A stretch of 58,314 nucleotides of DNA from Candidatus Micrarchaeota archaeon (GCA_040754495.1 JBFMCO010000014.1:1-58314); one strand, 5' to 3'. Counted from the stretch's first letter, positions 3,135 to 49,442 are shown. Numbers and translations: made by a program. Notes: a model not told the origin generated them from the letters alone.

Positions 3135-3293
3135 CTATATCCCGAAGAAAGTGAAGCCCGGGTGCATCACCTTCATCATCGCTATGTAGGCCGCGATGAA
3201 GACCCCTATCCAGAAAATGTTCTCTATCCACGGCCACCACCAGCGGGTTGCCGGTTTCCGGCCTCCGGTTTCCGGTTTAGGTTCTAATGGCAT
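3135..3293 (-). CDS. 52-aa membrane microprotein with heptamer-repeat-encoded N-terminus
   Basis: ATG 3293 overlaps end of upstream gene; MPLEPKPETGGRKPATRWWWPW then TM helix. Confidence 0.5.
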   Translation of the reverse strand: MPLEPKPETGGRKPATRWWWPWIENIFWIGVFIAAYIAMMKVMHPGFTFFGI

Positions 3294-3481
3294 TTTTTCC
3301 CTCCGAAGGCCATCATGGCCACATGGCTCCCGACGCAGATGAGCGTCGCGAGCGGAAAGAGCCACCAGCCGCTTATCCCGGCAAGCTGGAAGGCCAGTAT
3401 CACCAGCACCGGCAGCGCGCAGCACACCGCCATCATGGCGAAATGGTTTTTCCTAATCGAGTCCCATAGTTTGGATAGCAA
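3284..3481 (-). CDS. Small 2-TM Cys/His protein (DUF2933-like)
   Basis: NH..MM..CC..P and C..SH..MM..GGKKCH motifs. Confidence 0.7.
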   Translation of the reverse strand: MLSKLWDSIRKNHFAMMAVCCALPVLVILAFQLAGISGWWLFPLATLICVGSHVAMMAFGGKKCH

Positions 3482-3485
3482 TCCA

Positions 3486-4091
3486 TCACCCGAAATTTCT
3501 CTCTACCAGCGCGTAGATATAGACGGACGCGGCCGCCCCTGCAAGCATGCCGGTTGCAAAGCGCACCGGATTCGTGCTCTCCCAGAACTCAAGAAGCTGG
3601 CCCGTCCCATCGACCGCAAGCGGCAGTATCGCGAGCAGAAGGAAGGCGACGTGGGGGACGAATGGCTTCTTCCATACGAAAGGCAGGGCAAGGCCGGCCA
3701 GCAGCATGGACAGATATATCCCGATGTTCCTCGTGTCGTTCGGGAACTTGTAGCCGGCAACATCCCCATAGAGCACCTTTTCAGCCCGGTTCAGGCCTAT
3801 CTGCTCGCGCGAGTAGGCGAAGACACCGTCCCAGGCGCGCCTCGCATTGGTGAACTCCGTGCTTATCACGGCACCCTCCCCTTTCTGTATGCAGTCCCCG
3901 ACCCAGTGCTCCGTGCCGTCGTAGAAGACACAGCTCGAGCGGTATATCCACTGGTGGCAGGTCGGTGCGTAGAGGTTGTAGCTCAGGGATGCCAGCTCCC
4001 GTGGCCCGTGGAAGGCGAGGAGCGGCGTCATTGCTATCGTTCCGACAATCGCAAGCATGACGGATAGGTAGAGCAGATAAACCTTGTTCAC
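3486..4091 (-). CDS. DUF2085-family membrane protein
   Basis: CHQ...RS, R..GIY, LP...DG..Q and N..RF.TG motifs. Confidence 0.75.
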   Translation of the reverse strand: MNKVYLLYLSVMLAIVGTIAMTPLLAFHGPRELASLSYNLYAPTCHQWIYRSSCVFYDGTEHWVGDCIQKGEGAVISTEFTNARRAWDGVFAYSREQIGLNRAEKVLYGDVAGYKFPNDTRNIGIYLSMLLAGLALPFVWKKPFVPHVAFLLLAILPLAVDGTGQLLEFWESTNPVRFATGMLAGAAASVYIYALVERNFG

Positions 4092-4095
4092 CGCT

Positions 4096-4389
4096 TCACC
4101 TTTGGAAGTTGGACAGGTCCTGGCCGACCGCCTGCTTGAATTTCACCGGGTTCACGTACTTGTAGCATTCCTGGAACCTGTCAGGGTGGTGGCTCAGGTG
4201 CTGGAGGTTGCTCGGGTCGTTGATATCCCCGCACTCCGGCGGCGGCGAGCCCAAGGCAATCGCCGGCCCTGGCTGCCCTGCGCCCTGGTTCTGCGCCGCA
4301 GCCGGCGGTGCCAGGAACGAAAGGAAGGCCAACGACAGCAGCGCCCCTGCCGCCACGAGGACGGCTCCGTACAATATTTTTTCATCCAT
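4096..4389 (-). CDS. Secreted/membrane-anchored hypothetical with C...HLSHHP...C motif
   Basis: N-terminal hydrophobic helix; operon spacing of 4 nt on both sides. Confidence 0.7.
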   Translation of the reverse strand: MDEKILYGAVLVAAGALLSLAFLSFLAPPAAAQNQGAGQPGPAIALGSPPPECGDINDPSNLQHLSHHPDRFQECYKYVNPVKFKQAVGQDLSNFQR

Positions 4390-4393
4390 GTTA

Positions 4394-5158
4394 TCACATC
4401 CCGATGCCCCTCCAGGGAATCGCCCGATAGAGAAGGCTTACGAACGAAAGGTACTGGCCGCTCAAAAGGAGCAGGCCCATCACTATGAATATCGCGCCGA
4501 CCGCGAGGCGGACCGCCCGCTGGTGGCGCTGGAGCAGCTTCAGGCTTTCCATAGTGCGCGAGAAGAACAGCGATGCCAGAAGGAAGGAAAGCCCGAGGCC
4601 TGCCGAGAACGCCAGCATGATGAGCCCGCCCGCAAAGGTGTCCTGCGTTGAGGCCGCGAGCATGAGCGTGGGGAAGAGCGTCGGGGATATGCAGTGCGAA
4701 CAGACGAGGGCGAAGATGGCCCCGACCAGGAAGACGCCTGCGTAGGAGAGCGCGCCGTCCTCCCCGCGCCACCTTTCCGTGGCCTTCTGCAGCTTCTCAT
4801 CATCCATCATGCCGCCAAAGCGCCACAGGACGTCCTTGAGCAGGCCTAGATAATGCAGCCCGAGTATGACGAACAGGACCCCTGCGAGCAGCGACGTTAT
4901 GCCGAAAAACGCCGGCATTGCCCCGGCAAGGGCCGCGGCCGCCGCTCCCACTGCCGTGAAGACCAGCGTGAAGGCCAGCACGAAGACGAGCGTCTTAGCA
5001 AAAAGCTGGCGCCTGACCGGCGCAGAGCCGCCGTCGCGCAGCAGCGCATCGAAGCTGAAGCCCGTGATAGTCGTAAGATAGACTATTATCATGGGTATGA
5101 TGCAGGGCGATATGAACGAAACGACGCCGGTCAGGAACGGCAGCGCAAGCTCCATCAC
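4394..5158 (-). CDS. ccdA: Cytochrome c biogenesis CcdA-family protein
   Basis: GVVSFISPCIIP and CSHCISPTL motifs, about 6-7 TM. Confidence 0.85.
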   Translation of the reverse strand: MMELALPFLTGVVSFISPCIIPMIIVYLTTITGFSFDALLRDGGSAPVRRQLFAKTLVFVLAFTLVFTAVGAAAAALAGAMPAFFGITSLLAGVLFVILGLHYLGLLKDVLWRFGGMMDDEKLQKATERWRGEDGALSYAGVFLVGAIFALVCSHCISPTLFPTLMLAASTQDTFAGGLIMLAFSAGLGLSFLLASLFFSRTMESLKLLQRHQRAVRLAVGAIFIVMGLLLLSGQYLSFVSLLYRAIPWRGIGM

Positions 5159-5886
5159 ATCGTCCCTCCGAACAGTATGTAGAGCGCGAAGAGCACCATG
5201 AGCAGGCCCATTCCGAGCTTGAAGTTGCGCCGGTTGTCCTTCTCGGCCTTCTCGAGCCTCTCGAGAACCCGCTCGTCAGACGAGACCACGAGCGCCAGGA
5301 TGAGGGGCAGCACGAACATGAGGTTATAAAGTCCCAGGAGCCCCAGTCCTGCCACGTCCAGCCCCTTCGAGCTAATCAGCGTGATTATCGCCACGTAGAG
5401 CCCCCCTACGCACGGGAAGGCGCAGAGGCCGACGAGTATGCCCGCGATGAACGTGGCGAACATGGTTCCTTTCTCCAGGAAACGCGAGAGATACGGCTTG
5501 CTGAACTCCGGGATTTTGAGCGTGCTCGTGCCCATCAGCCCGTCCTTGACGGAAACGGCCCCCACCGCAAGCAAAAGAACCGCGCCGGCTTTCGCCATGA
5601 AGTGCGGCTCGAAGACCGAGACGGCCTTCATTATCCCGAGCCCTATCCCGAAATAGGCGATGAACACGCCCAGGATGTAGAGGAGGCCGAATGCCAGTAT
5701 CTGCGTCCTCGTGCGCTTGACCGAGAGCAGGAACGCGATGAAGAAAAGGAGCACGGTGAAGCCGCAGGGATGTATGCCGTCGAGGAATCCCGTCACTATG
5801 ACCAGGCCGACCATGTTCTGCGAAAGATACAGATATGCCGCTGCTACGATAAGGAAAAGGAAAAGAAGCAGGTGGGACGCTTTCAT
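5155..5886 (-). CDS. CcdA-like membrane protein
   Basis: GFLDGIHPCGF and FPCVGGLY motifs, multi-TM. Confidence 0.8.
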   Translation of the reverse strand: MKASHLLLFLFLIVAAAYLYLSQNMVGLVIVTGFLDGIHPCGFTVLLFFIAFLLSVKRTRTQILAFGLLYILGVFIAYFGIGLGIMKAVSVFEPHFMAKAGAVLLLAVGAVSVKDGLMGTSTLKIPEFSKPYLSRFLEKGTMFATFIAGILVGLCAFPCVGGLYVAIITLISSKGLDVAGLGLLGLYNLMFVLPLILALVVSSDERVLERLEKAEKDNRRNFKLGMGLLMVLFALYILFGGTM

Positions 5887-6441
5887 TCAGTTCCCTCTGA
5901 GCGAGTAGGCCACGAAGCCTCCTGCAAGGACCAGCAATGAGAGCGGGAGGATGAGGCCGAGCGAGCCGGCTCCGCTTCCCGCGCCCCCTCCAGCCGCCGC
6001 GCAGTCCGCAATCGGCTGGTCTATGGGGCAGGCGTGCTCCTTCCCGTCCATGAGCATCTTGTAGCCAGTAGGCTTGTCCATGCTGTCCTGCGTCACCACC
6101 ACCTGGCCGCCCGGGGCCTTCAGGTAACCCTCAATAAGCTCCGGCGGCACGTGGCCCTCGAAGAGGTACTTGTCGTCCACAAGCACGAGGAGGTGGCCCT
6201 GCATCCCCAGCGGGACTCCGAAGCGCTCCTGTATGGCTGCGACTTCGGTGCGGGCCTGCGCGTCGGACATGTAATCCTTTATGGCCACGTCGCTGTAGCC
6301 GTTGCGCTCAAGCATATCCATGAGGTCGTCCATGTACATCACGCAGTGCCCGCATCCCTCGTTCTTGTAGATGAGCACCCCTCCGGCGAAAACGCCGGGA
6401 AGCAGGAGGAGCAGAAGGAGCGCTGCCGCCCTCCTCAGCAT
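5887..6441 (-). CDS. Exported CxxC thioredoxin-fold/DUF411-like protein with C-terminal TM anchor
   Basis: Signal peptide, GCGHC, YLFEGHVP, C-terminal hydrophobic helix. Confidence 0.7.
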   Translation of the reverse strand: MLRRAAALLLLLLLPGVFAGGVLIYKNEGCGHCVMYMDDLMDMLERNGYSDVAIKDYMSDAQARTEVAAIQERFGVPLGMQGHLLVLVDDKYLFEGHVPPELIEGYLKAPGGQVVVTQDSMDKPTGYKMLMDGKEHACPIDQPIADCAAAGGGAGSGAGSLGLILPLSLLVLAGGFVAYSLRGN

Positions 6442-6638
6442 CCTCCCACCATCCCGGCGCCGCTGCCTGCAGATTTTGGTGGGATCGCAGGCTGCGCGTT
6501 CTGGCCATTTGCTGGCGCGTTAGTCTGTGCCGGCGCATTCTGGGCGAGCTTCACCAGCCCGTACAGCTGGAACGCCTGCACAAGGGTGACGATGACGAGT
6601 ATGGCGGCCACCAGCACCATGAGCATCTCCCTGTTCAT
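6435..6638 (-). CDS. Membrane-anchored MVGGC-terminal protein 1
   Basis: TM helix, Q-A-F-Q-L, A/P/Q/N linker, ends GMVGGC. Confidence 0.8.
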   Translation of the reverse strand: MNREMLMVLVAAILVIVTLVQAFQLYGLVKLAQNAPAQTNAPANGQNAQPAIPPKSAGSGAGMVGGC

Positions 6639-6775
6639 GCCGCATCACCCTCGCCGTCGCCGGCACCTTTGCCTTTCTTGTCGTCCATTCTCTCCTCGCA
6701 ATGATAGCAGTAGTCGCCCGGCTCGTTGCCGCAGCAGGCGAACACTATCTTGCCGCAATCCTTGCATTTCTTCAT
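6635..6775 (-). CDS. 46-aa Cys-rich putative Zn-binding microprotein (not in ORF track)
   Basis: MKKCKDCGKIVFACCGNEPGDYCYHCEERMDDKK...; GAGG RBS; ATGA overlap with downstream gene. Confidence 0.75.
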   Translation of the reverse strand: MKKCKDCGKIVFACCGNEPGDYCYHCEERMDDKKGKGAGDGEGDAA

Positions 6776-6776
6776 T

Positions 6777-6989
6777 CTAACAACCTCCTACCATTCCGCT
6801 GCCTGCCGGCTTCGCGGCTGCTGTGGCGGGCTGGTCGTGGTGGCCTGCCATCGGGTCAACCGCCTGTGCCAGCGCCCCGGCTTGCGGACCAGACACCTGT
6901 CCAACCAGGCCGGAAAGCTGGTAAGCCTGCACGACCGCGACTACGAGCAGTATTGACACGACTGCCAATACCAGGAATTCCTTGTCCAT
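6777..6989 (-). CDS. Membrane-anchored MVGGC-terminal protein 2
   Basis: Paralog of 6435-6638; ends GMVGGC. Confidence 0.8.
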   Translation of the reverse strand: MDKEFLVLAVVSILLVVAVVQAYQLSGLVGQVSGPQAGALAQAVDPMAGHHDQPATAAAKPAGSGMVGGC

Positions 6990-7005
6990 CCTTCATCACC
7001 TCTCC

Positions 7006-7788
7006 CTAGCATCCTCCTACCATCGCACCGCCGCTACCGCCAGCCGAGGCTGCGCTCTCTATGCCGCGGTACTTGTTGGAGGCGAGATTGACGTAGTTCA
7101 GCTCGACGCCCTGCGACTTGAGGACGGCCGCCTTCTGGGCATGGACGCCCGGGAAGAACAGCACCTTCCACTTGCCGAGCTCCTCGAGGATCTGGTCATC
7201 CGTGTACTCGGAGCCGTGGTTCTTGATGAGGTACTTGGCAAGCCCCCTCATGGCGTAGCTGTGCGAGCATCCGCAGGCCGGCGCGCCGGTCGCGAACACA
7301 AGCGTCTTCGCGCCGCAGCAGTATTCGCACGCTATGCTCGTCCCTATCTTCACGTAGCGCTGCAGGTCGGCGCCCTGCAGGTCTATCTGCTGGTCGTATA
7401 TGGCGAGCTTGTCTATCGTGCTGTCCGCAAGCTGCGGGTTCGTCTCGGAGACATCGTCGTACCTGATGCCGAGCTCTGAGCCGTATATGGCCGGGACGCC
7501 GGTTGGGCGGACATCCACCGCCTGCAGCGAAGCCCCTGACGGCTGCGCCTGGGTTGAAGGCGCCGCCTGCGCGGCCGCCACTCCCCCGGCCTTCACCAGC
7601 GGCATCGAGTATAGGGTCGCAATCTGGAACTGGTTGAACGCGGCCACGACCACCAGCACGGCAAGAAGCCCTATCAGTATCGTATGGTACTGGGGCCCTT
7701 CCGGAGCCGTCCCCCCTGCCTGCGCGGCCGGCCCCTCGCCGGCCTGCCTTTTCCGGGAATCCTCCACGGTCCTCCTTTCATCCATCAT
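7006..7788 (-). CDS. Membrane-anchored Cys-rich protein, MVGGC-terminal protein 3
   Basis: Same TM/FNQFQ start as the small paralogs; CEYCC...CGCSH..AMRGL domain; ends AMVGGC. Confidence 0.8.
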   Translation of the reverse strand: MMDERRTVEDSRKRQAGEGPAAQAGGTAPEGPQYHTILIGLLAVLVVVAAFNQFQIATLYSMPLVKAGGVAAAQAAPSTQAQPSGASLQAVDVRPTGVPAIYGSELGIRYDDVSETNPQLADSTIDKLAIYDQQIDLQGADLQRYVKIGTSIACEYCCGAKTLVFATGAPACGCSHSYAMRGLAKYLIKNHGSEYTDDQILEELGKWKVLFFPGVHAQKAAVLKSQGVELNYVNLASNKYRGIESAASAGGSGGAMVGGC

Positions 7789-7804
7789 GTCACCTTTTTC
7801 TTTT

Positions 7805-7878
7805 TTGTAAGTTTTACAATGCGTGTAATACTAAACCAATCTATTTTTAAACATTTGTAAGCCTTACATTTATTGTAA
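7805..7878. promoter_or_regulatory. Divergent promoter with two TGTAA-N3-TTACA-N5-TGTAA operator-like sites
   Basis: TTGTAAGTTTTACAATGCGTGTAA (7805-7828) and TTGTAAGCCTTACATTTATTGTAA (7855-7878) between operon and repressor; TACA/TGTA half-sites typical of BlaI/MecI/CopY. Confidence 0.65.
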
Positions 7879-7885
7879 AGGTTGA

Positions 7886-8245
7886 TTGGTTATGATTGCA
7901 AAGGGAGTTCTGGAGGAGCTGAGCCCGCTGGAAGCCGAGGTCCTCAAAGCCCTGCTTCCGGGCAGGAAGATGAAGGTGAGGGACGTCCATGCCTCGGTCT
8001 CGAAGAGGCAGAAGGTAGTCCTCACCAGCGTCGCGGTCATGCTGGACCGGCTTCATGGGAAGCGGCTCGTTGACCGCGAGATAGAGACGTGCCGCGGAGG
8101 CACGAGGTACATATACTTCCTGAGGAAAAGCCCGGCGGAAATAGAAGAGGAGTATCTGAAGGGCCAGGTGGACGGTATTATAAGCAAGTTCGGGGATAAG
8201 GCTATAGCGTACTTCCACAAGAGGTTCAGCGAAGGGAAAGCATGA
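7886..8245 (+). CDS. BlaI/MecI/CopY-family transcriptional repressor
   Basis: LSPLEAEVLK.L, TSV..MLDRL..K.LV.R winged helix, ...FGD.A.AYF dimerisation tail. Confidence 0.85.
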   Translation: MVMIAKGVLEELSPLEAEVLKALLPGRKMKVRDVHASVSKRQKVVLTSVAVMLDRLHGKRLVDREIETCRGGTRYIYFLRKSPAEIEEEYLKGQVDGIISKFGDKAIAYFHKRFSEGKA

Positions 8246-10148: not shown

Positions 10149-10278
10149 GGGCAGAATTAGCCAGCAAATGTTTATATGAATAGTGGAAGTTTGGGCTGCC
10201 ACGGCGGCACGGAAAGGAATTAGGCTTTAAAACTTTCCCGTCCAGAATGGAAAATACTACTTTATAGGAGGCGAAAAA

Positions 10279-10695: not shown

Positions 10696-10697
10696 GC

Positions 10698-11780: not shown

Positions 11781-11784
11781 GCGC

Positions 11785-12726
11785 TCACCTTGCCTTTATC
11801 GCCTTCTTCCTCGCCTCGTCCAGCGTGTGCCAGTTCATCGGGTGGCCTATCCTGCAGACGGCGCAGCAGAGGCCGTAGGTCATCACCGTAGCGCAGGAGG
11901 GCACGTTGTAGCCTTTCTTCCTGATGTGGCTCACCTGGTAGGCGGTTATCTTTTCGCTGAAATCGGGCAGGTCCGAGTAGAGCTTCACTACGTCCTCCTC
12001 GCTCATCCCGGCTGCAAGCAGGTACGTGGCAAGATACCATCTAGCATGGTGCGGCAGGTTCTCGTGCTTCTTCATCTCATCCAGCAGCCTTGCGACGCAC
12101 GGCGGGTGGTCTCCTGCCTTCACCGTTATCTTCACGCTGCTTTTCGGCATCTGGGCGAGCAGCCTCGCCCCGGCCGCCTTTATCAGCTCGGGCGGGTCCT
12201 TCACCAGCGGGATGGCCTCTATGTGCTTCTTCACGGCCTCCTCTATGAGCCTCCTCTTCTCGCTGGCCTTAATCTCGACCATGCCGCGGTATATCCTGCG
12301 GTTTATGAGGCGGTAATCCGGGTTCCTCAGGCTGTACCGGACGTACGTAGGGATGTTGACGAAAAGGGTGCCGTTCCTCGTTGCCGTCGCTATCCCGAAC
12401 TGCGCGGCCACCCTGTCCACGGCCGCCTCGTCATCGCGGTCCAGGCAGTCCCTCACCCTCTTGGATTCGTTGACCGCGAACGTGTTCGTGAGGAAGTTGT
12501 TGCGCATGTGGCCGAGTATCATCCTCGCCGCTGCGAACGAGGCGATGTCCTCCAACTTGTCGGACTCGTGGAGGAGCATCTTCGCCGTCTTGTCCCCGTT
12601 CAGGGCCTTTTTTATGCGCTCGAGCCCCATCTCCACCATCCTCTCGGTGAGGCTCATCCCTTCCAGGGCGGCCCTCGCGCTGTCGCTGAAAGGATACTTC
12701 ATGGCGAAATCTAGGCCCTCTCCCAT
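11785..12726 (-). CDS. priL: DNA primase large subunit
   Basis: YPF start, HPPC, L.H.ARWYL, YQV.HI, PSC...GLC Fe-S cysteines. Confidence 0.9.
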   Translation of the reverse strand: MGEGLDFAMKYPFSDSARAALEGMSLTERMVEMGLERIKKALNGDKTAKMLLHESDKLEDIASFAAARMILGHMRNNFLTNTFAVNESKRVRDCLDRDDEAAVDRVAAQFGIATATRNGTLFVNIPTYVRYSLRNPDYRLINRRIYRGMVEIKASEKRRLIEEAVKKHIEAIPLVKDPPELIKAAGARLLAQMPKSSVKITVKAGDHPPCVARLLDEMKKHENLPHHARWYLATYLLAAGMSEEDVVKLYSDLPDFSEKITAYQVSHIRKKGYNVPSCATVMTYGLCCAVCRIGHPMNWHTLDEARKKAIKAR

Positions 12727-12808
12727 GCAGCTATATCCGCCGGCATTCTATAAAATTGCTACGGGTTCGAGGCCTCCCGCGTCCGGCCTCCGGTTCCGGG
12801 TTTTGAGT

Positions 12809-13447
12809 TCAGGGTTTTTGCGTTTTGGGGCCCGCCTTCTTCTTTTTCCGGGGGGCCTTAGGTTTCGCTTCCTGCGGAACCTCCGCCTGCGCGCCCTCGG
12901 GTGCCGGCGGGGGCGCCACCAGCACCACTTTCGGAACAGGCCTTGACGCCGCCTCGCTTCTTGCATAAGACCTTGCCGCCCTGCCCGCCAGCTCATATCC
13001 TATGTCGAAGGCGGCTATGGCTATGAAGAAGTCCCAGATGCCGACGATTGCCGGGACAAGGGCGCCGAGCTTGAGGAACGGCCTCGTCTCGGTTATCCAC
13101 CTGTAGCGGCCGATGTAATCCAGCTCGTCGAGGAAGGCGAGCACCAGGAATATCGCGAGGAGCAGCAGGTCGAGCTGGGGAAAGCCGAAATATACCAGGG
13201 ACAGCCCGGCCACGAGGAACCCGGCCCTGTGGGCGGGCGTGTCCACCTTGCGCGCGAAGACCTGCGCGAGAAGGGCGGCCAGGAACAGCACAGAGAACGT
13301 GCTCGAGCTGATGAGATAGCCTATGATGAGCCCGTAGGCGAGCGCGAGAGGGAGCTTCCGCGCGAGGGACGTCTTCCTCTCGTCGTCCATCCAGTCCACG
13401 AGCTTCACAAGGGCGCCGGCTATGAAAGCAAGGGCATACTCGAGCAT
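12809..13447 (-). CDS. Multi-pass membrane protein with Pro/Lys-rich tail
   Basis: Several TM helices, host-like codon usage. Confidence 0.65.
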   Translation of the reverse strand: MLEYALAFIAGALVKLVDWMDDERKTSLARKLPLALAYGLIIGYLISSSTFSVLFLAALLAQVFARKVDTPAHRAGFLVAGLSLVYFGFPQLDLLLLAIFLVLAFLDELDYIGRYRWITETRPFLKLGALVPAIVGIWDFFIAIAAFDIGYELAGRAARSYARSEAASRPVPKVVLVAPPPAPEGAQAEVPQEAKPKAPRKKKKAGPKTQKP

Positions 13448-13451
13448 AAGG

Positions 13452-15152: not shown

Positions 15153-16874
15153 ATGATGAGCAAAGAATCGTTTGAAGTGGACCAGATAGCGCTCGGCGAA
15201 TGCGGGGGGGAGGTTGCCGGGATACCCATCAGGTACCTCACCCGCCACGGCATAATAGCGGGAAGCACAGGGACCGGGAAGAGCCGGGCCATGCAGGTGC
15301 TCGCGGAGCAGCTTGCGGAGGCCGGCGCGCACGTCTTCGTGTCTGATGTGAAGGGCGACGCCTCCGGGTTCTGCGTCCCGGCCTTCGAGCAGGCGGAAGT
15401 GCCGGCCGAGGCCGAGAAGAAGTGGGGCGAGCGCAACCGCCTCGCCCCGTTCGAGCCCTCATCATTCGGCGCGAACTACTGGAGCGTCTCGGACCGGTTC
15501 GCGAGGATGCGCTTCTCAATAAGCAAGGCCGGGAGCGTGCTTTTCTCCAGGCTGCTGTCCCTGAATCCGACGCAGGAGAGCCACCTCGCGATAGCGTTCT
15601 CCTACGCAAAGAAGCAGGGCATCGGCCTCGACACCCCGGACCAGCTCCTTGACGTCCTTGACGAGCTTGTCAAGACCAACCAGCGCGGCATCAGTCCCTC
15701 CAGCGTGTCGGTCATACAGCGGAAAATCATAGCCCTCCAGGAGTCGGGCCTCGGCCGGATGTTCGGAAGCCCGGACGTGCGCCTTGAGGATTTGGGCGGG
15801 CTGAACGTCCTCAACCTCAGCGACGCCCGCAACGACATGGCCGTCACGATGGCCCCTGCGTTCGTGCTGAAAAAGCTGTTCGACCTGCTTCCGGAAGTGG
15901 GCGAAGTGGAGAAGCCGAAGTTCGCGGTATTCTTCGACGAGGCGCACTACCTTTTCAAGGACTCGAACAAGTCGCTCCGGGACCTGATGGCGACCATCCT
16001 GAAGCAGATACGCTCGAAGGGCGTCGCGGTCTTCTTCGTGACGCAGGATGTCGGCGACATCCCGGACGAGATTCTCAGCCAGCTTTCGACCAAGATAATA
16101 TTCTCGCAGAAGGCCATGACCGAGAAGGGGAACGCGCGCCTGCGCGCCCTCGTGAAGTCATTCCCGAACCCAAAACCCGGCGCAAGGCTTGGCTCTTCAG
16201 CGGAGCCAAACCTTGCGGAAACCGGAAACCGGCTGCTGGAAACCATCAAGACCATGCCTCCGGGCGTCGCCCTGCTCTCCACGCTGGACGAGTCCGGCAA
16301 CCAGACCGAGCCGGCGCAAGTGCGCGTTTTCGCTCCTGCGACGACCATGGCGGTCGTTCCGGACGAAGCGCTGAGGAAGGCGACGGATGCGGAGCTGATT
16401 AAGAAATACGCGGCCGTGCAGAAGCCGAAGGCGCAGGAGAGGCCGAAAGCCCCGGAGCCAGGCCTTCAGGCAGAAACTCCGCGGCCGAAGGCCGAGGCAA
16501 AAAAACCAGCAAAATCCGAAACCCAAAAAACAGGACCCAAAACCCCAAAACCCGCACCTGCCGCCCCGCCTCCGGTCCGCGAAGAGGTCCGGATAAAGGA
16601 AGTTGTCGTAGAGAAAAAAGTCGTCAAAAAGAGCGGGCCGCCCATCCTTGATGGCGTGCTGGGTGGCCTCCTCAAGCTCCTGCGGTTCTTCCTGAAGGCC
16701 GGAGGCATGGTCTTCGACGCGTTCATGGCGAAGCCTCTCAGGGCGCTCTTCAAGTATCTCACGAAGAAGCCCATCCGGCTGCTCTACTTCGTCCTGCTGC
16801 TCATACTCCTTTACGCCCTGTACGTGAACTGGGCGAAGCTCCAGGCGCTGCTGGAAGCGATAAAACTCACCTAG
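15153..16874 (+). CDS. DUF853/HerA-like P-loop ATPase with low-complexity linker and C-terminal TM
   Basis: RHG.IAGSTGTGKS, FFDEAHYLF, IRSKGV..FFVTQ...DIP. Confidence 0.85.
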   Translation: MMSKESFEVDQIALGECGGEVAGIPIRYLTRHGIIAGSTGTGKSRAMQVLAEQLAEAGAHVFVSDVKGDASGFCVPAFEQAEVPAEAEKKWGERNRLAPFEPSSFGANYWSVSDRFARMRFSISKAGSVLFSRLLSLNPTQESHLAIAFSYAKKQGIGLDTPDQLLDVLDELVKTNQRGISPSSVSVIQRKIIALQESGLGRMFGSPDVRLEDLGGLNVLNLSDARNDMAVTMAPAFVLKKLFDLLPEVGEVEKPKFAVFFDEAHYLFKDSNKSLRDLMATILKQIRSKGVAVFFVTQDVGDIPDEILSQLSTKIIFSQKAMTEKGNARLRALVKSFPNPKPGARLGSSAEPNLAETGNRLLETIKTMPPGVALLSTLDESGNQTEPAQVRVFAPATTMAVVPDEALRKATDAELIKKYAAVQKPKAQERPKAPEPGLQAETPRPKAEAKKPAKSETQKTGPKTPKPAPAAPPPVREEVRIKEVVVEKKVVKKSGPPILDGVLGGLLKLLRFFLKAGGMVFDAFMAKPLRALFKYLTKKPIRLLYFVLLLILLYALYVNWAKLQALLEAIKLT

Positions 16875-17816: not shown

Positions 17817-18008
17817 GGGGTTATGGCGTAAGCGTGGTTTCCGGTCTCCAGTTTCCTGTTTCCGGAATGATTGCCGGAAACCGGATGCGGGCAACCGGAA
17901 ACCGTGTGCGCGACCTGGCAGCGCGGCAGTCTCCAGATCCCGCCTTTCTGAGGAAAGGCACCAGAGCCGTGATAACTGTACGTCGGAGTTCAAATCTCCG
18001 TGACCCCA
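17817..18008 (+). tRNA. tRNA-Trp(CCA) with introns at 15/16 (17832-17913) and about 37/38 (17937-17973)
   Basis: Acceptor GGGGTTA/TGACCCC, D-stem GCGT/GCGC, anticodon stem GCAGT/ACTGT, T-arm CGGAG-TTCAAAT-CTCCG; D-loop intron BHB-like; anticodon-intron BHB poor. Confidence 0.85.
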
Positions 18009-24936: not shown

Positions 24937-25026
24937 ATGAATCCACTGAGGATTGACGAAGAGGAAGACTGGGAAGACGAAGACACCGAAGAGGAAGAAT
25001 GGGAAGAGGAAGAGGAAGAAGAGTAG
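24937..25026 (+). CDS. Acidic micropeptide 1 (MNPLRIDEEEDWEDEDTEEEEWEEEEEEE)
   Basis: AAGGTG RBS, TTTAAAAG upstream, paralogous to next ORF. Confidence 0.55.
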   Translation: MNPLRIDEEEDWEDEDTEEEEWEEEEEEE

Positions 25027-25164: not shown

Positions 25165-25407
25165 GGGCTCGTAGCTCAGTCCGCCTTTTGGGAAAAGGCG
25201 GCCCAAAACCGACTGATGAAAAACGCTTCGCGTTTTTGGCCGAATCCAATCAAAAGGCGGGAGCAGCTTGGATAGAGCGGCAGCCTTCTATGCCCCCGGC
25301 ATCCGGTTTCCGGTTTCCAGTCCCGCGTTTCGGGTACTGGTTGCCGGCTGCAGGATGCCGGATGCGCAGGCAGCTGTAGGTCGGGGGTTCAAATCCCCCC
25401 GGGCCCG
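25165..25407 (+). tRNA. tRNA-Arg(TCT) with introns at 15/16 (25180-25266) and 37/38 (25291-25371)
   Basis: GGGCTCG/CGGGCCC, GCTC/GAGC, A20, GCAGC-CTTCTAA-GCTGT, GGGGG-TTCAAAT-CCCCC; near-perfect BHB for the D-loop intron. Confidence 0.95.
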
Positions 25408-25694
25408 TATCCGCTTCCGGTTTCCCGTTTCCCGTCTTGAGTTTGACTCAGGCGGATACGGGACGTCCATGTTCCGCCGAACATGGTGCGCCTCCCTACT
25501 GTTCCTTGAACAATGGGGCACCGCGACGCCGTGCGTCGCGATTGTGTTCGGGGCGCCGGACAAGTGCGCGGAAGTGAAATCATCAGATTTCACAACGGGC
25601 CCGATTTTGTTTCACGTCCAGCGAATCAAATATAAACCCCTTTCGCTATAGATTGGATGTTAATTCTGGAGAATCCGAGCCGCCAGGTGGGAGT

Positions 25695-38076: not shown

Positions 38077-38106
38077 GCTTACACCTGACCGCCAAGGCTT
38101 ATGAGG

Positions 38107-38166
38107 TTTTCAGTTTCCGGTTTCCTGTCTTGGGCGCTGGACCCGAAACCGGGAACCGGAAACCGC
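38107..38166. repeat. Intergenic heptamer (GGTTTCC/GGAAACC) inverted-repeat hairpin
   Basis: GGTTTTCAGTTTCCGGTTTCC ... GAAACCGGGAACCGGAAACC between argG and argH. Confidence 0.75.
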
Positions 38167-40900: not shown

Positions 40901-40904
40901 GCTT

Positions 40905-42205: not shown

Positions 42206-42234
42206 CGGGCAGCAGGCCCTTCAGTTTTTTTGCA

Positions 42235-43920: not shown

Positions 43921-44095
43921 AAAAGAACTTATAGAGAAACATTTGGTACGAAATCCTTATAAAATGGGATTCGGACGGCCTGCGCGAGGGCCGCTTGGCT
44001 GTGAGAAGCCGCCACGTGAACTCCTGGTCTGGTTGTCAATCCGAAGGATTGGCAAACGATTAGTTTTTTGGCCCCTTTTTTTCTAAAAAAGGGGA

Positions 44096-44254
44096 CGGGC
44101 CAGGTGAGATTTGAACTCACGACCTTCACCTTCCGCCTTTTAGGAAAAGGCGGCCAAAACGGCCTCTCCATTTCCCGAAATTAGGACGGTGCCGCTCAAG
44201 ACTCAGGGAAGCAGAACTGCTTGCCCCAATCTATCCAAGCTGAGCTACAGGCCC
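44096..44254 (-). tRNA. tRNA-Arg(CCT) with introns at 22/23 (44197-44230) and 37/38 (44132-44181)
   Basis: GGGCCTG/CTGGCCC, GCTC/GAGC, A20, GTGAG-TTCAAAT-CTCAC; good BHB at 22/23; U6-U67, G27-A43 and G32 are atypical. Confidence 0.75.
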
Positions 44255-44308
44255 ATGGCCAATCATTGCTGGCATGAATTTAAAAACCGTTTTCAGCATC
44301 TTCCAGCC

Positions 44309-45070
44309 ATGATTCTGCCGCTATCCGAGCTCATCAGCCGTGGCGTCGAACAGACGCTCGAGGACCGGGTGGCGGTCTCGTTCTCGGGCGGCCTTGATTC
44401 CACTGTCATAGCATCAATCGCGCGCAGGCATGCGCAGGTCGAGCTTTTCACAGCCGGCGTTGAAGGCAGCGAGGACCTGGAATACGCAGGCAAGGCTGCA
44501 GCGGCCCTCGGCCTTCCCCTCCACCGCATCATCATAGACGAGCAGAAGGCCATGGAGGCGTACGCCAGGTGCCACTCGATGCTCCCCCTTGATTTCCTCA
44601 AGCTCGAAATCCTGGTCCCGGTCTATTTCGTGGCCGAGGCGGCCGCCGCGAAAGGCCACAGCGTAGTGCTTTTCGGCTCGGCAGCAGAGGAGCTTTTCGC
44701 GGGCTACGAGCGCTATTACGTTTGCCGGGACGAGGGCAAGGACGTCGAGAAGCTCCTGAAGGAGGAGTTCCGCACCCTGCCCCAGCGCGATTTGGCCTGG
44801 GTGAAAAGGGTGTGCCGCTGCTTCTCCATAGACGCACGCTTCCCGTTCTACTCCAAGGATGTCGCAGACATAATGTTCTCGGTGCCGCTCGAGGACCGCA
44901 TGGACGACCGCGTGCTCAAGAAAGGCATACTCCGCGAGGCAGCAAAGGTTCTCGGGGCTCCGGACATCGTGCTCAAGAGGAAGAAAAAGGCCATGCAGTA
45001 CGGCTCCGGCGTCCACAAGATGCTGATTCGCCGCGTGGAAGAGATAAACCGCTCTTACCCGAGCTCATGA
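44309..45070 (+). CDS. Asparagine-synthase-like C-terminal domain protein (no glutaminase domain)
   Basis: VSFSGGLDS, GSAAEELFAGY, RFPF, K.ILR.AA, RKKKAMQYGSG. Confidence 0.85.
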   Translation: MILPLSELISRGVEQTLEDRVAVSFSGGLDSTVIASIARRHAQVELFTAGVEGSEDLEYAGKAAAALGLPLHRIIIDEQKAMEAYARCHSMLPLDFLKLEILVPVYFVAEAAAAKGHSVVLFGSAAEELFAGYERYYVCRDEGKDVEKLLKEEFRTLPQRDLAWVKRVCRCFSIDARFPFYSKDVADIMFSVPLEDRMDDRVLKKGILREAAKVLGAPDIVLKRKKKAMQYGSGVHKMLIRRVEEINRSYPSS

Positions 45071-45904
45071 GCGGCGCATCGCAGCCTCTATCACGTTGCT
45101 TATCAGCATGGCGACGGTCATCGGCCCGACCCCGCCCGGGACCGGGCTGCAGTTCGCTTTCTTTATTACGTTTGGGAAATCCACGTCGCCCACTGTCTTG
45201 TCGCCCACCCGGCTGGTGCCGACGTCTATCACATGCGCGCCTTCCCTGACCATGTCCGCCTTCACGAGGCCCGGCCTGCCCGCCGCGGCGATGAGGATAT
45301 CCGCGTTCCGGGTGTGCTCGGCCAGGTTCCTGGTCCTGGAGTGGCATATCGTGACCGTCGCGTCCCGCTCGAGAAGCATGAAGGCGAGCGGCTTGCCGAC
45401 CACGTTGCCGCGCCCTATCACCGTCGCATTCGCGCCGGCGATTTTCACGCCGTAGAAATCGAGCATCTTGATTATCCCCATCGGAGTTGCCGGCATGAAC
45501 GTTTCGGATATCCCGAGGAACATCCTTCCCATGTTCGTCGAAGTCCAGCCATCGACATCCTTCCGCGGGTCTATCGCCTCGACCACATTCGGGTAATTGA
45601 TGTGCTTCGGAAGGGGCGACTGCACTATGAAGCCGTCTATGGAATCGTCTTTGTTGAGGCCCCCCACCAGCTCAAGGAGCTTATCCTCGCTCGTGTTCTC
45701 GTCCATGGCTTTGAGGCTTGTCATCACCCCGACTGATTCTGCCTTCTCCATCTTCTTGCGCACATATAGCTGCGAGGCCGGGTCGCTGCCGACAAGGACG
45801 ATGGCAAGGTGAGGGGCTCGCTTCATGGTTCTCACTATGTTTTTCGCGTTCTCGAGGATTCCCGCGGCCGGCTCGCGGCCGGACAGTGTCTTATACGCCG
45901 TCAT
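45065..45904 (-). CDS. folD: Bifunctional methylene-THF dehydrogenase/cyclohydrolase
   Basis: P.LA.VLVG.DPAS..YV..K, KDVDG, P.TP.GI, GRG..VGKP, VGDVDF, PVPGGVGPMT. Confidence 0.95.
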   Translation of the reverse strand: MTAYKTLSGREPAAGILENAKNIVRTMKRAPHLAIVLVGSDPASQLYVRKKMEKAESVGVMTSLKAMDENTSEDKLLELVGGLNKDDSIDGFIVQSPLPKHINYPNVVEAIDPRKDVDGWTSTNMGRMFLGISETFMPATPMGIIKMLDFYGVKIAGANATVIGRGNVVGKPLAFMLLERDATVTICHSRTRNLAEHTRNADILIAAAGRPGLVKADMVREGAHVIDVGTSRVGDKTVGDVDFPNVIKKANCSPVPGGVGPMTVAMLISNVIEAAMRRS

Positions 45905-46036
45905 AACGGTCTGGCTCCTGGTGTCCCCAGTTTCCTGAACACTGACCTTCTCGCAGTGAAGGGTTTTAAAAACGTTTATCGGTTTAATAGTCTCGAACAT
46001 ACGACAGCGCCGGCACATGGCGATGGGGTGTGTTTT

Positions 46037-46278
46037 GGGCCTGTAGCTCAGCTCGGTTAGAGCGACGGTCTTATACGACACGTTCTAGCACAGTTGTCTA
46101 TACGACTGAGTGCCTATGAAAGCCGTAGGTCCGGAGTTGCGCTTTTTGGGAAAAAGCGCCCAAAAACGTGTTGATGAAAAACGTTTCGCGTTTTTGGGAA
46201 TTTCCATCTGAAAGGCGCAACGGAATTCAAAAGAGTCGAAGGTCTCGACCTGCGATTCTGCGGCTCTCCGCAGGCCCA
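46037..46278 (+). tRNA. tRNA-Ile(TAT) with three introns: 37/38 (46076-46120), 53/54 (46137-46225), 59/60 (46232-46264)
   Basis: GGGCCTG/CAGGCCC-A73, ACGGT-CTTATAA-GCCGT, CGGAG-TTCAAAT-CTCCG after splicing; BHB-like motifs at each junction. Confidence 0.85.
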
Positions 46279-46457
46279 ATTTTATTTTCCTGGTGTTCAG
46301 TGTCGGGTGTTCGGTGTCCAGTATTTACGTCTGATTTTACTGCTTTCTTACTGCTGCTTTTCCAGCCGATTTTCTTTGAAATAAGATTTGATGGCTTCTG
46401 GGCCTCGGAAAAACTTATATCTTCGGCATTCATACGTATCATTCCTCCATTTTGCAT
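46264..46457 (-). CDS. Integrase N-terminal fragment (intN)
   Basis: GGAGGT RBS, ATG 46457; 58 codons then att read as KIGPAE, same frame as in intC. Confidence 0.65.
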
Positions 46458-46603
46458 TTTTCTTTACCTCCAGCTCGCGCTAGCCCTTCCGAATCGGAAA
46501 AAGCGCGGGCGGAGCCGACCGAACGGTTTCCAGCAGCCGGTGTCCGGTTGCCAGTAACGTTCAGCCTTCAATGTTTCCCATCTCAAATTCTCCTTTTTTC
46601 ATC

Positions 46604-46965
46604 TCATTTTGCCTCACCTCTCGCCTCGACCGATGCCTTGAGCTTGCACAGCATCGACCGGATTCGTACGAGCGTTGTCATGTAGTTCAGATGTTCCCGC
46701 TGGGGAATTATCTGCAAGGAGTGGCACAGGTCCAGCCAGAATTCGGCTTCGTTCGCCTCTCCGACGCAGCAGACTAGTTTTTGCTTCTGGGCTGGGATGG
46801 AACCATCGCTCCCATCTCCGCCAGGTTGGCACAGATGGAGGAAACCGAAGCCAGAAGCTGCTCCTTGGCCCGGCTGCTCATCCTCTTGTCCTCCATGAAC
46901 TGGAAGACGTCCTTCGACAGCCGAAACGCCTCCTCATAAACCCTTAACTTCTTGAAGTCCTGCAT
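46604..46965 (-). pseudogene. Four-helix-bundle (IVS/S23-like) gene with a -1 frameshift near 46806
   Basis: MQDFKKLRVYEEA...QL..S..SI.ANLAE; other frame continues DGSIPAQKQKLVCCVGEANEAEFWLDLC...KLKASVEARGEAK*. Confidence 0.8.
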
Positions 46966-47344
46966 GATTTCACCTTTTTTATGCCTAATAAATTCCTTGT
47001 CGGGGTGCATTTCCGCGGAACCCTTACCCCGGCTTCTCTATGCGTCCGGGATTTATCTCGCGAGCGTCATTGCGGCGCCCGCAATGTTTCTTCCACGGGC
47101 GGGAAGCAATGACGCGAGGCAAAAATCAGTTTCCGTATGCGTGAGATGAGGGCAACCGTGCGGAGTTTTTATTCATTTAGCAGTTTGCGTGAAGGCAGAG
47201 AGTTGGGATTAGCAAACTGCGACCTGAGCGAGGGCGAAAACGCACATTAAATCTTTCGGTGCGCCAGCACCGAACCCGAAGGGCTTGAGGTTTAAGTGCT
47301 TTTCTGCCCGAGCGAAGGGAAATGATTAAAACGGAGCACAAAGG

Positions 47345-47542
47345 TCATTCCTTTCTACGGATGGGAGCACGCCTTACTTCTATCCCATCCCCGTCTTTAT
47401 CTCTAAAAGCCGTTATTACGACCTGATCTTTTTCGGTCCAACCAAGCGTTCTGGCCTCTTTGGTGATGAAGATAGCTAATCCTGTAGCCCATGGAATTAT
47501 CTTTTTGACATTCATGGCGAGGGTTTCTCTTTTTTCCTCCAT
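47345..47542 (-). CDS. Small AbrB/MazE-like DNA-binding protein
   Basis: KIIPW..GLAIFI.KE...LGW...D.V.I pattern. Confidence 0.55.
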   Translation of the reverse strand: MEEKRETLAMNVKKIIPWATGLAIFITKEARTLGWTEKDQVVITAFRDKDGDGIEVRRAPIRRKE

Positions 47543-47611
47543 GTCGCTTAAGTTTTTAAACTGAGTATTAATAGTAAATACTTAGTTTCATAAGTAGTGA
47601 AGGGGAATACG

Positions 47612-48475
47612 ATGTCTGACATAAAATTCGTCTTAACCGGTCTGGTTGTTGTCTGCTTGCTTCTTTTTGTCGGATGCACTTCGAAAGAGTCTGGCCCGCA
47701 GTTTGCAAAACCTGCTACGGATTCACAACCAACTGCTCCGACAAGTGCTCAGCCACAAGCTATAAACTGCGGGAATGGAGCCGTGGATTCGGGTGAAACG
47801 TGCTCTTCTTGCCCGACGGACGTACAATGTTCTGCTGGAATGGTTTGCTGCTCTGGGACATGTGCCAGACCTGTCTGTAATTCATCCGCTGACTGCGACG
47901 ACAACGACAAATCAACAGTGGATACCTGCCAAAATGCGGATAGTTGCGATGCAACGTGCTCACACAGTCAAATTACCTCATGCACGGATTCTGACGGAGT
48001 GTGCCCAGATGGCTGCAATGTTTTCAATGATAACGATTGCAAAGCACTGAGCCCAGGCACAGCGGCGGATTCGGGCAATTTGCAAATTAGCGTCTCCAAT
48101 CCGTATGTTCAAGTGTGCACGAGCGATTATTCAGAGGATAAGGACACGTATCTCGTTTTCGAAGTAAACGTGGAGAACAGAGGGACCAAAAAGGAGTATA
48201 TTTCCTCTATGGAGTTTTCAGCAGTTGATCCGAACCGAAAGCAATTCGATGGCTCAATACTATCGTACCCAACAGTATTCGGAGGGAACTGTGCAGACGC
48301 TAAAAACGACGCATTTAGCGGAGGGAATTTGCTCCCGGGTTCAAAGGATAATGGCAAGATATGGATTGAGTTGAGCAATACGGGCTCTTATTCCAAAGGC
48401 AAGTGGTATATCGTATACAAGCAAACATTCAGCCTGAAGGACTTGTACACAGTATACGAAACTCAGCTCAACTGA
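47612..48475 (+). CDS. Cys-rich surface lipoprotein with C-terminal DUF4352-like Ig domain
   Basis: Lipobox FVGC; CGNG...GETC, CDDND...VDTC, GVCP.GC...DNDC repeats; V.V.N.G...F..VD...KQF. Confidence 0.75.
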   Translation: MSDIKFVLTGLVVVCLLLFVGCTSKESGPQFAKPATDSQPTAPTSAQPQAINCGNGAVDSGETCSSCPTDVQCSAGMVCCSGTCARPVCNSSADCDDNDKSTVDTCQNADSCDATCSHSQITSCTDSDGVCPDGCNVFNDNDCKALSPGTAADSGNLQISVSNPYVQVCTSDYSEDKDTYLVFEVNVENRGTKKEYISSMEFSAVDPNRKQFDGSILSYPTVFGGNCADAKNDAFSGGNLLPGSKDNGKIWIELSNTGSYSKGKWYIVYKQTFSLKDLYTVYETQLN

Positions 48476-48497
48476 TTTTTCTTTTCATTTTCATTTC

Positions 48498-49442
48498 TTA
48501 CATTTTTTCCTGCATCCCCCTCACTTTTTCCAGAAGCCGCTCATCCTGCGCCCTCTCAATGCCCCCATAAAGCTCCTCCTTCTTCGTATGGATGTAAATC
48601 ATCGTTGTCTGGATGTTGGTATGCCGGGCAAACCTGCCAGCCAGCATGACGTTGCCGCCGTTCTTCCGGCAGAAGTTCGTGATGGCATAGTGCCTCAGGC
48701 TATGCGGACTGAGGCGAAACAGGGGTTTCGGATGAGCGCCTGCGCTGTAACCATAAATCTCAGCCAGCCCTGCCTTCTCTGCGTATCCGTGGAAAACGTT
48801 TCTCGCTGTTTCACGGGTTAAGTGGGATTCTATTTTCCGGGTCCTCCATCCATAAGCGAACGAAAAGAAAAGGAAGCCTTCTGCTTTGGCGATTTCCATC
48901 TCATAGGCAGCGATATACTGCAAGGTGGCATCGAACAGCTTTTCTGGAATCAGAAGATAGTCCGTTTTCCCGCTCTTTTCCGAGAAGATGCGCAGCTCGT
49001 GGGTTTTCAGGTTCAGGTCCTTGATGTTCATCCGTATGGCTTCCCCAATCCTGAGGCCGAGGATTGCCTGGAAGCTGAAAAGCAGGTGCGCTTTTGGATC
49101 GTCTATAACGCTGAAAAACCGCTCCAATTCTTCATCCGTAAATCCTTTGTTCATTGAGCCGTACTTCGGTCTTTTTGAGCGAAGGAAGCGCCTTTTCCTC
49201 GCTTCTGACAGGATAGTGATTGCCTTTACCAGATTCCACTTTGTGAGATGACGCCCGTAGTGTTCCAGTTCCTGCCTGATTTCCGGCCAATTCCGGGTTA
49301 ACTCCTTGGAGATTTCCCTTGCTGTTTTAACTAATTGTGCTTCGCCACAATCCAGAAACTGGGCACCCGACACGGAACACTGACGGGAAACCGGACACTG
49401 GCCACTGGAAACCGCTTCACCCCTCTCCGCAGGCCCAATTTT
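48498..49442 (-). CDS. Tyrosine recombinase/integrase C-terminal fragment (intC)
   Basis: GLRIGE (R), K, HSLRH (HxxR), ARHTN (H), TTMIY (Y). Confidence 0.92.
   Translation of the reverse strand, partial: KIGPAERGEAVSSGQCPVSRQCSVSGAQFLDCGEAQLVKTAREISKELTRNWPEIRQELEHYGRHLTKWNLVKAITILSEARKRRFLRSKRPKYGSMNKGFTDEELERFFSVIDDPKAHLLFSFQAILGLRIGEAIRMNIKDLNLKTHELRIFSEKSGKTDYLLIPEKLFDATLQYIAAYEMEIAKAEGFLFFSFAYGWRTRKIESHLTRETARNVFHGYAEKAGLAEIYGYSAGAHPKPLFRLSPHSLRHYAITNFCRKNGGNVMLAGRFARHTNIQTTMIYIHTKKEELYGGIERAQDERLLEKVRGMQEKM

Follow-up and report, generated by a model that had tools for sequence, protein, structure and literature searches.

The 58,314-nucleotide contig analyzed here (Candidatus Micrarchaeota archaeon, GCA_040754495.1 JBFMCO010000014.1:1-58314; hereafter the window) carries members of a dispersed repeat family, short arrays of a 7-nt unit, NGTTTCC, that recur throughout the host genome and are essentially confined to one family of Micrarchaeota. 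The arrays favor a module of exactly four units, pair in a single polarity, lie mostly outside genes, and have been gained, replaced, and turned over between species. We read them as a self-propagating, mostly neutral or selfish heptanucleotide simple-sequence and palindromic repeat, an archaeal counterpart of the heptamer families of bacteria and not a transposon with a partner gene; we hold this reading at about even confidence. The window is contig C14 of an assembly of 1.63 Mb in 72 contigs (59.5% GC, 80% complete), in which repeats are possibly under-assembled. The genome under study is referred to as G000 and its relatives as G003, G006, G010, and so on.

A dispersed family with a 7-nt period

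A preliminary description of the window had reported degenerate GGTTTCC/GGAAACC runs between and within genes, inside tRNA introns, and at the ends of an integrated element and had proposed that they form one dispersed family. The runs were present at all of the sites that it named, and Tandem Repeats Finder (TRF) returned period-7 rows there. The window holds 19 exact copies of GGTTTCC where 8.0 +/- 2.7 are expected (0 of 100 shuffles reached 19), and a two-unit pattern with up to three mismatches has 30 matches against 5.9 expected. A position-weight matrix (PWM) scan with an array threshold of at least 18 bits placed arrays at 3246-3280, 12785-12805, 16217-16230, 17836-17863, 17890-17903, 25298-25318, 25412-25432, 38105-38125, and 38144-38164; the sites at 46293-46318, 46524-46555, and 49355-49414 consist of a GGTGTYC variant and fall under the threshold.

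Genome-wide, the same scan found 239 arrays compared with 6 for a reversed matrix, and 40 arrays had at least three near-perfect units compared with none in Markov simulations of order 1, 3, or 5. A genome-wide periodicity scan gave 55 self-similar regions at lag 7 and 0-1 at lags 4, 5, 8, 10, 11, and 13, period 7 being the sole excess among periods not divisible by three. Measured against the shuffle, Markov, and reversed-matrix controls, the runs exceed chance. Among 407 units, 165 were GGTTTCC and 99% had G at position 2; variants include GGTTTCG, GGTTTTG, GGCATCC, GGTCTCC, and GGTTCCC. The data support a single family that reaches from tRNA introns and intergenic DNA into coding sequences and the ends of the integrated element.

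The family is restricted taxonomically and patchy within its range. A degenerate four-unit pattern matched 290 times in G000 (control, 10) and 0 to 286 times in the 39 other genomes of the genus; 14 of the 40 had no match at all. G011 and G021, which resemble G000 most closely at the tRNA-Trp locus, had 1 and 6. At the family level, 50 of 65 genomes, in at least 15 genera, had matches (in one, 237 against 0 in the control). The other families of the order and class stood at control level with essentially one exception. In a second genus (g17), lag 7 gave 16 regions and other lags 0-2.

A four-unit module and one-way pairs

Exactly four units were present in 126 of the 239 arrays. This mode is common to hairpin arms, single intergenic arrays, and genic arrays and recurs in the second genus; copy number does not vary freely, as slippage would make it do. 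The typical module, about 28 nt long, reads (GGTTTCC)3-GGTTTYG, its last unit tending to GGTTTYG, and flank composition is random directly outside it. Because of the four-unit mode and the random flanks, we regard the discrete module of about 28 nt as the basic element. Spaced repeats of the kind found in clustered regularly interspaced short palindromic repeat (CRISPR) loci were absent from the assembly, and an origin of the module as a CRISPR repeat was rejected.

More than half of the arrays are single arms. Where two arrays lay at most 40 nt apart, the T-rich arm was 5′ and the A-rich arm 3′ in 35 cases and the order was reversed in none; weak partners of single arrays added 20 on the 3′ side of a T-rich arm and 1 on the 5′ side. 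The genome thereby contains 35 imperfect intergenic palindromes and about 20 weak ones. The pairs fold as 60-70-nt hairpins built of 6-bp helices, and folding confirmed the hairpin arms proposed earlier for the tRNA-Trp intron and the argH-argG gap. Mismatches fall every 7 nt at the free first position of each unit, so the arms keep the motif rather than perfect pairing. The GAA miniloops described near several hairpins did not stand out: the motif SCGAAGS occurs 69 times against 68.7 expected.

Placement relative to genes

Placement was scored on home-made hexamer-based gene calls (85% coding) and a crude home-made list of tRNA genes. By these calls, 159 arrays fall between genes, 7 within tRNA introns, and 71 within genes. 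Noncoding DNA, which makes up 15% of the genome, thus holds 166 arrays, an enrichment of about 13-fold outside genes. Intergenic loci are densest between convergent genes (0.96 per kb), intermediate in tandem gaps (0.5-0.66), and sparsest between divergent genes (0.36; p = 0.002), and in tandem gaps they are skewed toward the upstream stop codon. Single intergenic arrays have no sense bias (24 T-sense vs. 26 A-sense). Genic arrays are mostly A-sense (61 vs. 10 T-sense) and encode hydrophilic loops rich in G, N, R, K, P, E, and T, such as ETGNRKLET and ETGNRKP-like peptides. The members of the window outside tRNA genes and the integrated element are as follows.

3246..3280, plus strand: five-unit array GGTTGCC GGTTTCC GGCCTCC GGTTTCC GGTTTAG (TRF period 7; PWM 40.3 bits)
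12785..12805, plus strand: three-unit degenerate array (PWM 18.6 bits; sequence reading)
16217..16244, minus strand: array in a HerA-like helicase gene (gene 15153-16874, plus strand; Pfam HerA_C)
38105..38164, no strand: hairpin of 3+3 units that fills the argH-argG gap (fold -34 kcal/mol)

The first array, once described as the N terminus of a micro-ORF at 3245-3285, turned out to be intergenic: it lies between the called genes 1760-2989 and 3284-3481 (both minus strand), just 3′ of a 65-aa open reading frame (ORF) on the minus strand. The second sits within a weaker periodic run (about 12775-12830) in the gap between genes 11785-12726 and 12809-13447, both on the minus strand. The HerA-like array translates in its A-rich sense as AETGNR..LET, and Pfam confirmed the identities of argH and argG. 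We also observed, within the A-sense array of the HerA-like insertion, a small 35-nt hairpin with one mismatch at 16166-16200 (CAAGGCTTGGCTC ... GAGCCAAACCTTG), which looks as if a small T-arm/A-arm pair had joined an existing array.

Arrays in tRNA introns and trailers

Neither ARAGORN nor Rfam at gathering thresholds reported a tRNA in the window; ARAGORN found just seven uninterrupted tRNA genes in the whole genome, and its intron mode was set aside as its calls were mostly spurious. Because these programs missed interrupted genes, we adopted a search for acceptor stems and T arms, which brought the count to about 30 tRNA genes, the majority interrupted by one to three introns. Two of them carry heptamer arrays in the window.

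17817..18008, plus strand: tRNA-Trp(CCA) gene with two introns (acceptor/T-arm search)
17836..17903, no strand: heptamer hairpin forming most of the tRNA-Trp D-arm intron (four-unit T-rich arm, loop, A-rich arm)
25165..25407, plus strand: tRNA-Arg(UCU) gene (partial Rfam tRNA match 25265-25399 with an 83-nt insertion; fold)
25291..25371, plus strand: tRNA-Arg anticodon-loop intron with a T-rich arm of GGCATCC/GGTTTCC units (25298-25318) and an A-rich arm of GGATGCC type (about 25337-25366)
25412..25432, plus strand: three-unit T-sense array in the tRNA-Arg 3′ trailer (PWM scan)

The tRNA-Trp introns occupy the D arm (17832-17913, 82 nt) and the canonical position 37/38 (17937-17973), with limits inferred from orthologues, one of which lacks the D-arm intron. 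The gene folds at -90.2 kcal/mol (z -5.8), and the predicted structure places a 4-bp GCGU/GCGC helix between an AA bulge and the 3′ junction, with the heptamer hairpin as the inner helix. In tRNA-Arg(UCU), whose 5′ exon we read as GGGCTCGTAGCTCAG, the introns lie in the D loop (about 25180-25266) and at 37/38 (25291-25371).

Arrays also follow tRNA genes, in one orientation. Within 100 nt downstream of 31 tRNA genes, there were nine T-sense arrays and no A-sense array, and nine T-arm sites in the second genus gave 4 and 0. The trailers start with TTTTCC-like terminators that run into the T-sense arrays.

These placements bear on a role at the RNA level, in which arrays would serve as processing or stability hairpins in 3′ untranslated regions, as helices for bulge-helix-bulge (BHB) splicing, or as polar transcription stops after tRNA genes. 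Enrichment 3′ of genes, the exclusive T-sense after tRNA genes in two genera, and the hairpins at the core of two tRNA introns in the window are what such a role would predict. However, single intergenic arrays are unbiased in sense, the stems carry regular mismatches, the arrangement that would place a U tract after the stem is the absent one, and the sites are not conserved between species. The hairpins fold no better on the transcribed strand than on the other (p = 0.65), and selection for transcribed-strand RNA hairpins was rejected on that ground. We consider an RNA-level role highly unlikely.

Several further features of these tRNA loci belong to other sequences. The D-loop intron at 25180-25266 and an intron at 46139-46200 share a module, CCGCCTTTTGGGAAAAGGCGG CCCAAAAC ... 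GTTTTGGGCC, that is separate from the heptamer family and reappears in other tRNA introns (C22 4693, C56 40531, and C58 3214); its GTTTTGG/CCAAAAC pieces resemble heptamer variants. At 24957-25023, an ORF that ends shortly 5′ of tRNA-Arg contains about two copies of a 30-nt GAAGAG-rich tandem repeat coding for an acidic tail rich in E, D, and W.

Gain, replacement, and turnover between species

We compared array-bearing loci with their orthologues in relatives that are 65-80% identical in DNA, and single events are unresolvable because the relatives are only that similar. A metagenome scan for strain-level relatives reached at most 74% protein identity, and an exact-protein search found none. 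The loci differ between species in ways that show insertion of hairpins at apparent seed sequences, replacement of tRNA intron bodies, and overwriting of coding patches.

In the 15 relatives examined, no counterpart of the hairpin was found in the argH-argG gap; one of them, G006, retains the left-hand flank with its gaGGTTTT. The D-arm intron of tRNA-Trp is a mere 15-20-nt hairpin in G011, G050, and G054 and is missing altogether in G010 and G048, and the long hairpin of G000 is an enlargement of such a 15-20-nt intron. At position 37/38 of tRNA-Arg, G000 and G048 have a heptamer hairpin, whereas G051, G054, G047, and G050 have an unrelated intron with a conserved module. The trailer array of tRNA-Arg was absent from those orthologous trailers that could be parsed.

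Within genes, the HerA-like array is part of a 17-aa insertion specific to G000, and G048 and G010 carry an array-like patch at this site with length unchanged. In LeuRS and Pus10, patches of 28-33 nt were overwritten without change in length; RibD gained 27 nt. Two further coding loops bear arrays in three species (G000, G006, and G044), with species-specific units. Several arrays overwrote sequence without altering its length, as an inserting element would not, and insertion as the sole mode of spreading is not supported.

Near-identical modules were commoner than under shuffled nulls. Most of them belong to larger segmental duplicates (e.g., C4/C31/C40 and C4/C56), and we therefore rejected this excess as proof that modules are copied. 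One such segment of about 173 nt, which includes a heptamer hairpin, exists in three copies that are 88-97% identical (C4 12969-13141, C31 22816-22988, and C40 17773-17950), so some hairpins have spread within larger duplicated segments.

We infer a copying process and the absence of a cellular function for the arrays. Modules would arise at existing seeds, namely TTTTCC terminators after tRNA genes, GGTTTT stretches, and GGAAA-rich codons, and would then grow or be copied through slippage, template switching, or short-patch conversion with the many other copies as donors. They would survive where they do no harm: on the 3′ side of genes, in the inner helix of BHB tRNA introns, which is spliced out, in protein surface loops read as ETGNRKP, and in the noncoding arms of integrated elements. 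The gaGGTTTT of G006 at argH-argG and the TTTTCC-like tRNA terminators are plausible seeds. The length-preserving patches in LeuRS, Pus10, and HerA and the species-specific units in orthologous loops point to copying rather than insertion, and the apparent lack of conservation at single sites (the argH-argG hairpin, the tRNA-Trp intron hairpin, and the tRNA-Arg trailer array) is consistent with neutrality. Placement fits tolerance of harmless sites in the noncoding enrichment, the order convergent > tandem > divergent, and the hydrophilic reading of genic arrays.

Arrays at the ends of an integrated element

The right part of the window contains an integrated element with variant arrays at both ends.

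46042..46288, plus strand: intron-bearing tRNA, candidate anticodon UAU, with the element integrated at its 3′ end (sequence reading)
46284..49442, no strand: integrated low-GC element bounded by 20-bp att repeats
46293..46318, plus strand: variant T-rich array GGTGTTC AGTGTCG GGTGTTC GGTGTC, just inside attL and directly after the tRNA (TRF)
46524..46555, plus strand: second T-rich array, left arm of the element (inverted repeat I1)
46614-46975, minus strand: PF05635 four-helix-bundle gene, broken into two out-of-frame pieces (Pfam)
47597-48475, plus strand: DUF4352 lipoprotein (Pfam)
48498-49511, minus strand: tyrosine integrase (Pfam)
49355..49414, minus strand: arrays, A-rich on the plus strand, just inside attR; inverted copies of both left-arm arrays

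The two direct copies of the 20-bp att repeat (46264-46283 = 49423-49442) correspond to the 3′ end of the tRNA, and GC content is 44-53% within the element vs. about 60% in the flanks. The end arrays are inverted repeats of each other with 81-84% complementarity: 46524-46555 pairs with 49383-49414 (I1, 84%) and 46293-46318 with 49355-49380 (I2). In an excised circle, the variant arrays would flank attP. Homologous integrase/PF05635 islands in G003, G042, G050, and G054 also lie at tRNA genes, with arrays at the tRNA-proximal junction or the far boundary, and in G003, a GGTGT-type array directly follows the tRNA, as it does in the window. Repeated motifs flank the att core at a matching place in related elements of four or five genomes.

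The preliminary description had suggested a REP/MITE-like family (repetitive extragenic palindromes; miniature inverted-repeat transposable elements) with the four-helix-bundle/integrase element as its autonomous partner. The link between arrays and elements is real at the local level because the homologous islands carry arrays at their junctions or boundaries. At the genome level, it is a weak association: PF05635 is single and broken in G000, occurs in 9 of 40 genomes of the genus (5 of 11 array-rich and 4 of 29 array-poor; one-sided hypergeometric p ~0.05, uncorrected for kinship), and was not found in six array-rich genomes of the genus, a record that speaks against an autonomous partner. 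The REP-like part of the proposal holds for the placement of palindromes 3′ of genes. The MITE part does not, as the hairpins had no target-site duplications (no adjacent 3-5-nt direct repeats) and no pairing past the arms, and copies are not uniform. Neither conserved ends nor att-core-like sequences were found at the hairpins, and the longest k-mer common to their flanks was no longer than in permuted flanks.

Candidate mobilizing enzymes fared no better. Y1 transposase (PF01797) was not found in G000 (80% complete), G006, G010, or G003 and was found in nine other genomes of the genus regardless of array load; reverse transcriptase was not found in G000. Neither tracks array load, and both were rejected as the mobilizing enzyme. 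Only one element has arms of this kind, and its tyrosine integrase recombines at the 20-bp att core, outside the arms.

The palindromic members could still be nonautonomous REP-, MITE-, or palindrome-associated transposable element (PATE)-like elements moved in trans by an unrecognized enzyme, possibly one encoded on an island. All pairs have the polarity expected of terminal inverted repeats, which matches the arms of the integrated element; the patchy distribution within the genus fits horizontal spread; arrays recur at island ends in relatives; and the association with PF05635 points the same way. Against this stand the missing target duplications, end conservation, and core-like flanks, copies that vary in length and sequence, the lack of a Y1 transposase in the four array-rich genomes just named, the broken or missing four-helix-bundle gene, the gains that keep length, and a distant array-rich genome in which the 328 kb sampled contained modules but no pairs. 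We judge movement in trans decidedly improbable.

Other observations concern the element and its surroundings. The tRNA at 46042-46288 is the third interrupted tRNA of the window, missed by both ARAGORN and Rfam, with an apparently long intron in the T-loop region; its UAU anticodon and intron parse are putative. Two 55-nt segments that start with the att core (49430-49484 and 49522-49576) lie 92 nt apart and are 98% identical, and a partial third att copy is present at 49515-49534; the duplicated segments across 49430-49576 suggest remnants of tandem or repeated integration at the tRNA. Beside the broken four-helix-bundle gene, the noncoding stretch 47158-47335 is 77-80% identical to the same position in the G003 and G042 islands. 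Rfam returned nothing for this stretch, which may be a small RNA or a template related to retroelements, PF05635 being a family that includes accessory proteins of diversity-generating retroelements. Five further tyrosine integrase genes occur in G000 (on C13, C44, C46, C58, and C60), most beside tRNA genes, and the one on C13 adjoins an att-like GCCCAAATTT followed by a T-sense array. At the other end of the window, about the first 127 positions (1-127) are one extremity of a multicopy repeat. It also forms the termini of 12 other contigs (97.8-100% identical) and is probably an insertion sequence that breaks the assembly.

Weighing the readings

Several observations weigh against a neutral repeat spread by copying. 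Plain slippage accounts neither for the sharp four-unit mode nor for the strict pair polarity (35:0; weak partners 20:1), nor does it explain why at least 15 genera have kept the same unit; these three features suggest a sequence-specific factor. Several species have homologous elements in which arrays adjoin the att core and a GGTGTYS variant is conserved, which hints at a function at that place. Direct evidence for copying of 28-nt modules is thin because near-identical modules lie mostly in larger duplicates. At least one apparent genic array proved to be a conserved native peptide; the gene calls and tRNA list are home-made, and the genome is 80% complete.

One form of such a factor would be a sequence-specific DNA-binding protein for which the four-unit module is a binding array, either a host chromatin or architectural factor or an arm-binding domain or accessory factor of the integrase. 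Convergent pairs would then be symmetric binding sites, and integrated elements would use the arrays as attP arm sites. The discrete 28-nt size in two genera, the strict convergent polarity, and the persistence of the unit across many genera are what binding would produce; so are the GTTTCC core kept in each arm while the first position is free (a constraint on motif, not on pairing), the absence of a folding advantage on the sense strand, and the occurrence, in four or five genomes, of homologous elements with arrays flanking the att core. Yet intergenic sites are not conserved between species, the 14 genomes of the genus without a match would have to dispense with the factor or lack it, no candidate protein was identified, and it is difficult to picture arrays as binding sites when they lie inside coding loops or intron bodies. 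On balance, we think a binding array unlikely.

Alternatively, the four-heptamer module may be the recognition site or the product of a family-specific factor that copies or writes 28-nt patches into DNA. Such a factor would explain the module size, the polarity, the length-preserving overwriting, and the persistence of the unit across genera, and it would amount to a form of templated patch writing that reshapes the tRNA introns and protein loops of a reduced archaeal genome. We regard it as improbable. Likeness to archaeal origin-recognition boxes, Sm-ring binding of U-rich heptamers, and histone exclusion were considered as well and set aside.

Comparison with known systems

REPs and bacterial interspersed mosaic elements (BIMEs) are imperfect palindromes in bacterial intergenic DNA, associated with RAYT (Y1) transposases and free of target duplications. 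The Micrarchaeota palindromes are likewise scattered, imperfect, intergenic, preferentially 3′ of genes, and without target duplications. They differ in that no Y1 transposase was found in G000 or three other array-rich relatives, their arms are tandem heptamers and not a unique palindrome, and over half of the arrays are single arms.

In attP sites of lambda-like tyrosine integrases, short repeated arm-type motifs stand on either side of the att core in fixed orientation. The arrays of the integrated element appear similar: short motifs recur to the left and right of the att core, keep one orientation, and hold the same place in related elements. In contrast to arm-type sites, motifs of this family are found at about 240 other places in the chromosome.

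The closest parallels are the heptamer families of bacteria, which have been described in a few groups and are still unexplained. They include the STRR and GGGGA(T/C)T repeats of Calothrix and Nostoc and GGGAATC of Xanthomonas (PMC4692102), as well as TAACTGA in Beggiatoaceae, Cyanobacteria, and Bacteroidetes (PMC4679880). In these families, a single unit dominates, intergenic positions are favored, and some arrays form inverted pairs (PMC4692102, PMC4679880). The Micrarchaeota family shares with them the tandem 7-nt units with one dominant per lineage, the tens to hundreds of short, strongly intergenic arrays, the occasional inverted pairs, the restricted and patchy taxonomic range, and positions and lengths that vary between close species; in neither case is the generating mechanism established. 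It differs in its archaeal host, in a unit that does not form G-quadruplexes, in a copy number that peaks sharply at four and is not broad, in strictly polar pairs, and in arrays that form the helices of tRNA introns, have been written over coding loops, and lie on either side of att sites. No archaeal heptamer repeat family was found described in the literature searched. The fixed four-unit module, the one-way pair polarity, and the length-preserving gains constrain the mechanisms that can be considered, and the family indicates that a simple repeat can write hydrophilic loops into essential proteins (LeuRS, Pus10, RibD, and the HerA-like helicase).

The intron arrays also bear on the turnover of archaeal tRNA introns. 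Thermoproteales have transposed or mobile BHB tRNA introns, and ARMAN-2 has multi-intron tRNAs cut by a broad-specificity epsilon2 endonuclease (PMC3239211, PMC4090602). As in those archaea, tRNAs here are interrupted at canonical and noncanonical positions, intron bodies turn over, and sequence is shared between the introns of different tRNAs. Repeats and interrupted tRNA genes together defeat standard tRNA finders and probably contribute to the fragmented assemblies of these genomes. Unlike in Thermoproteales and ARMAN-2, the shared intron material is not intron-specific: it is a genome-wide simple repeat, found mostly outside tRNA genes, that can supply tRNA intron helices and thereby enlarge or replace introns.

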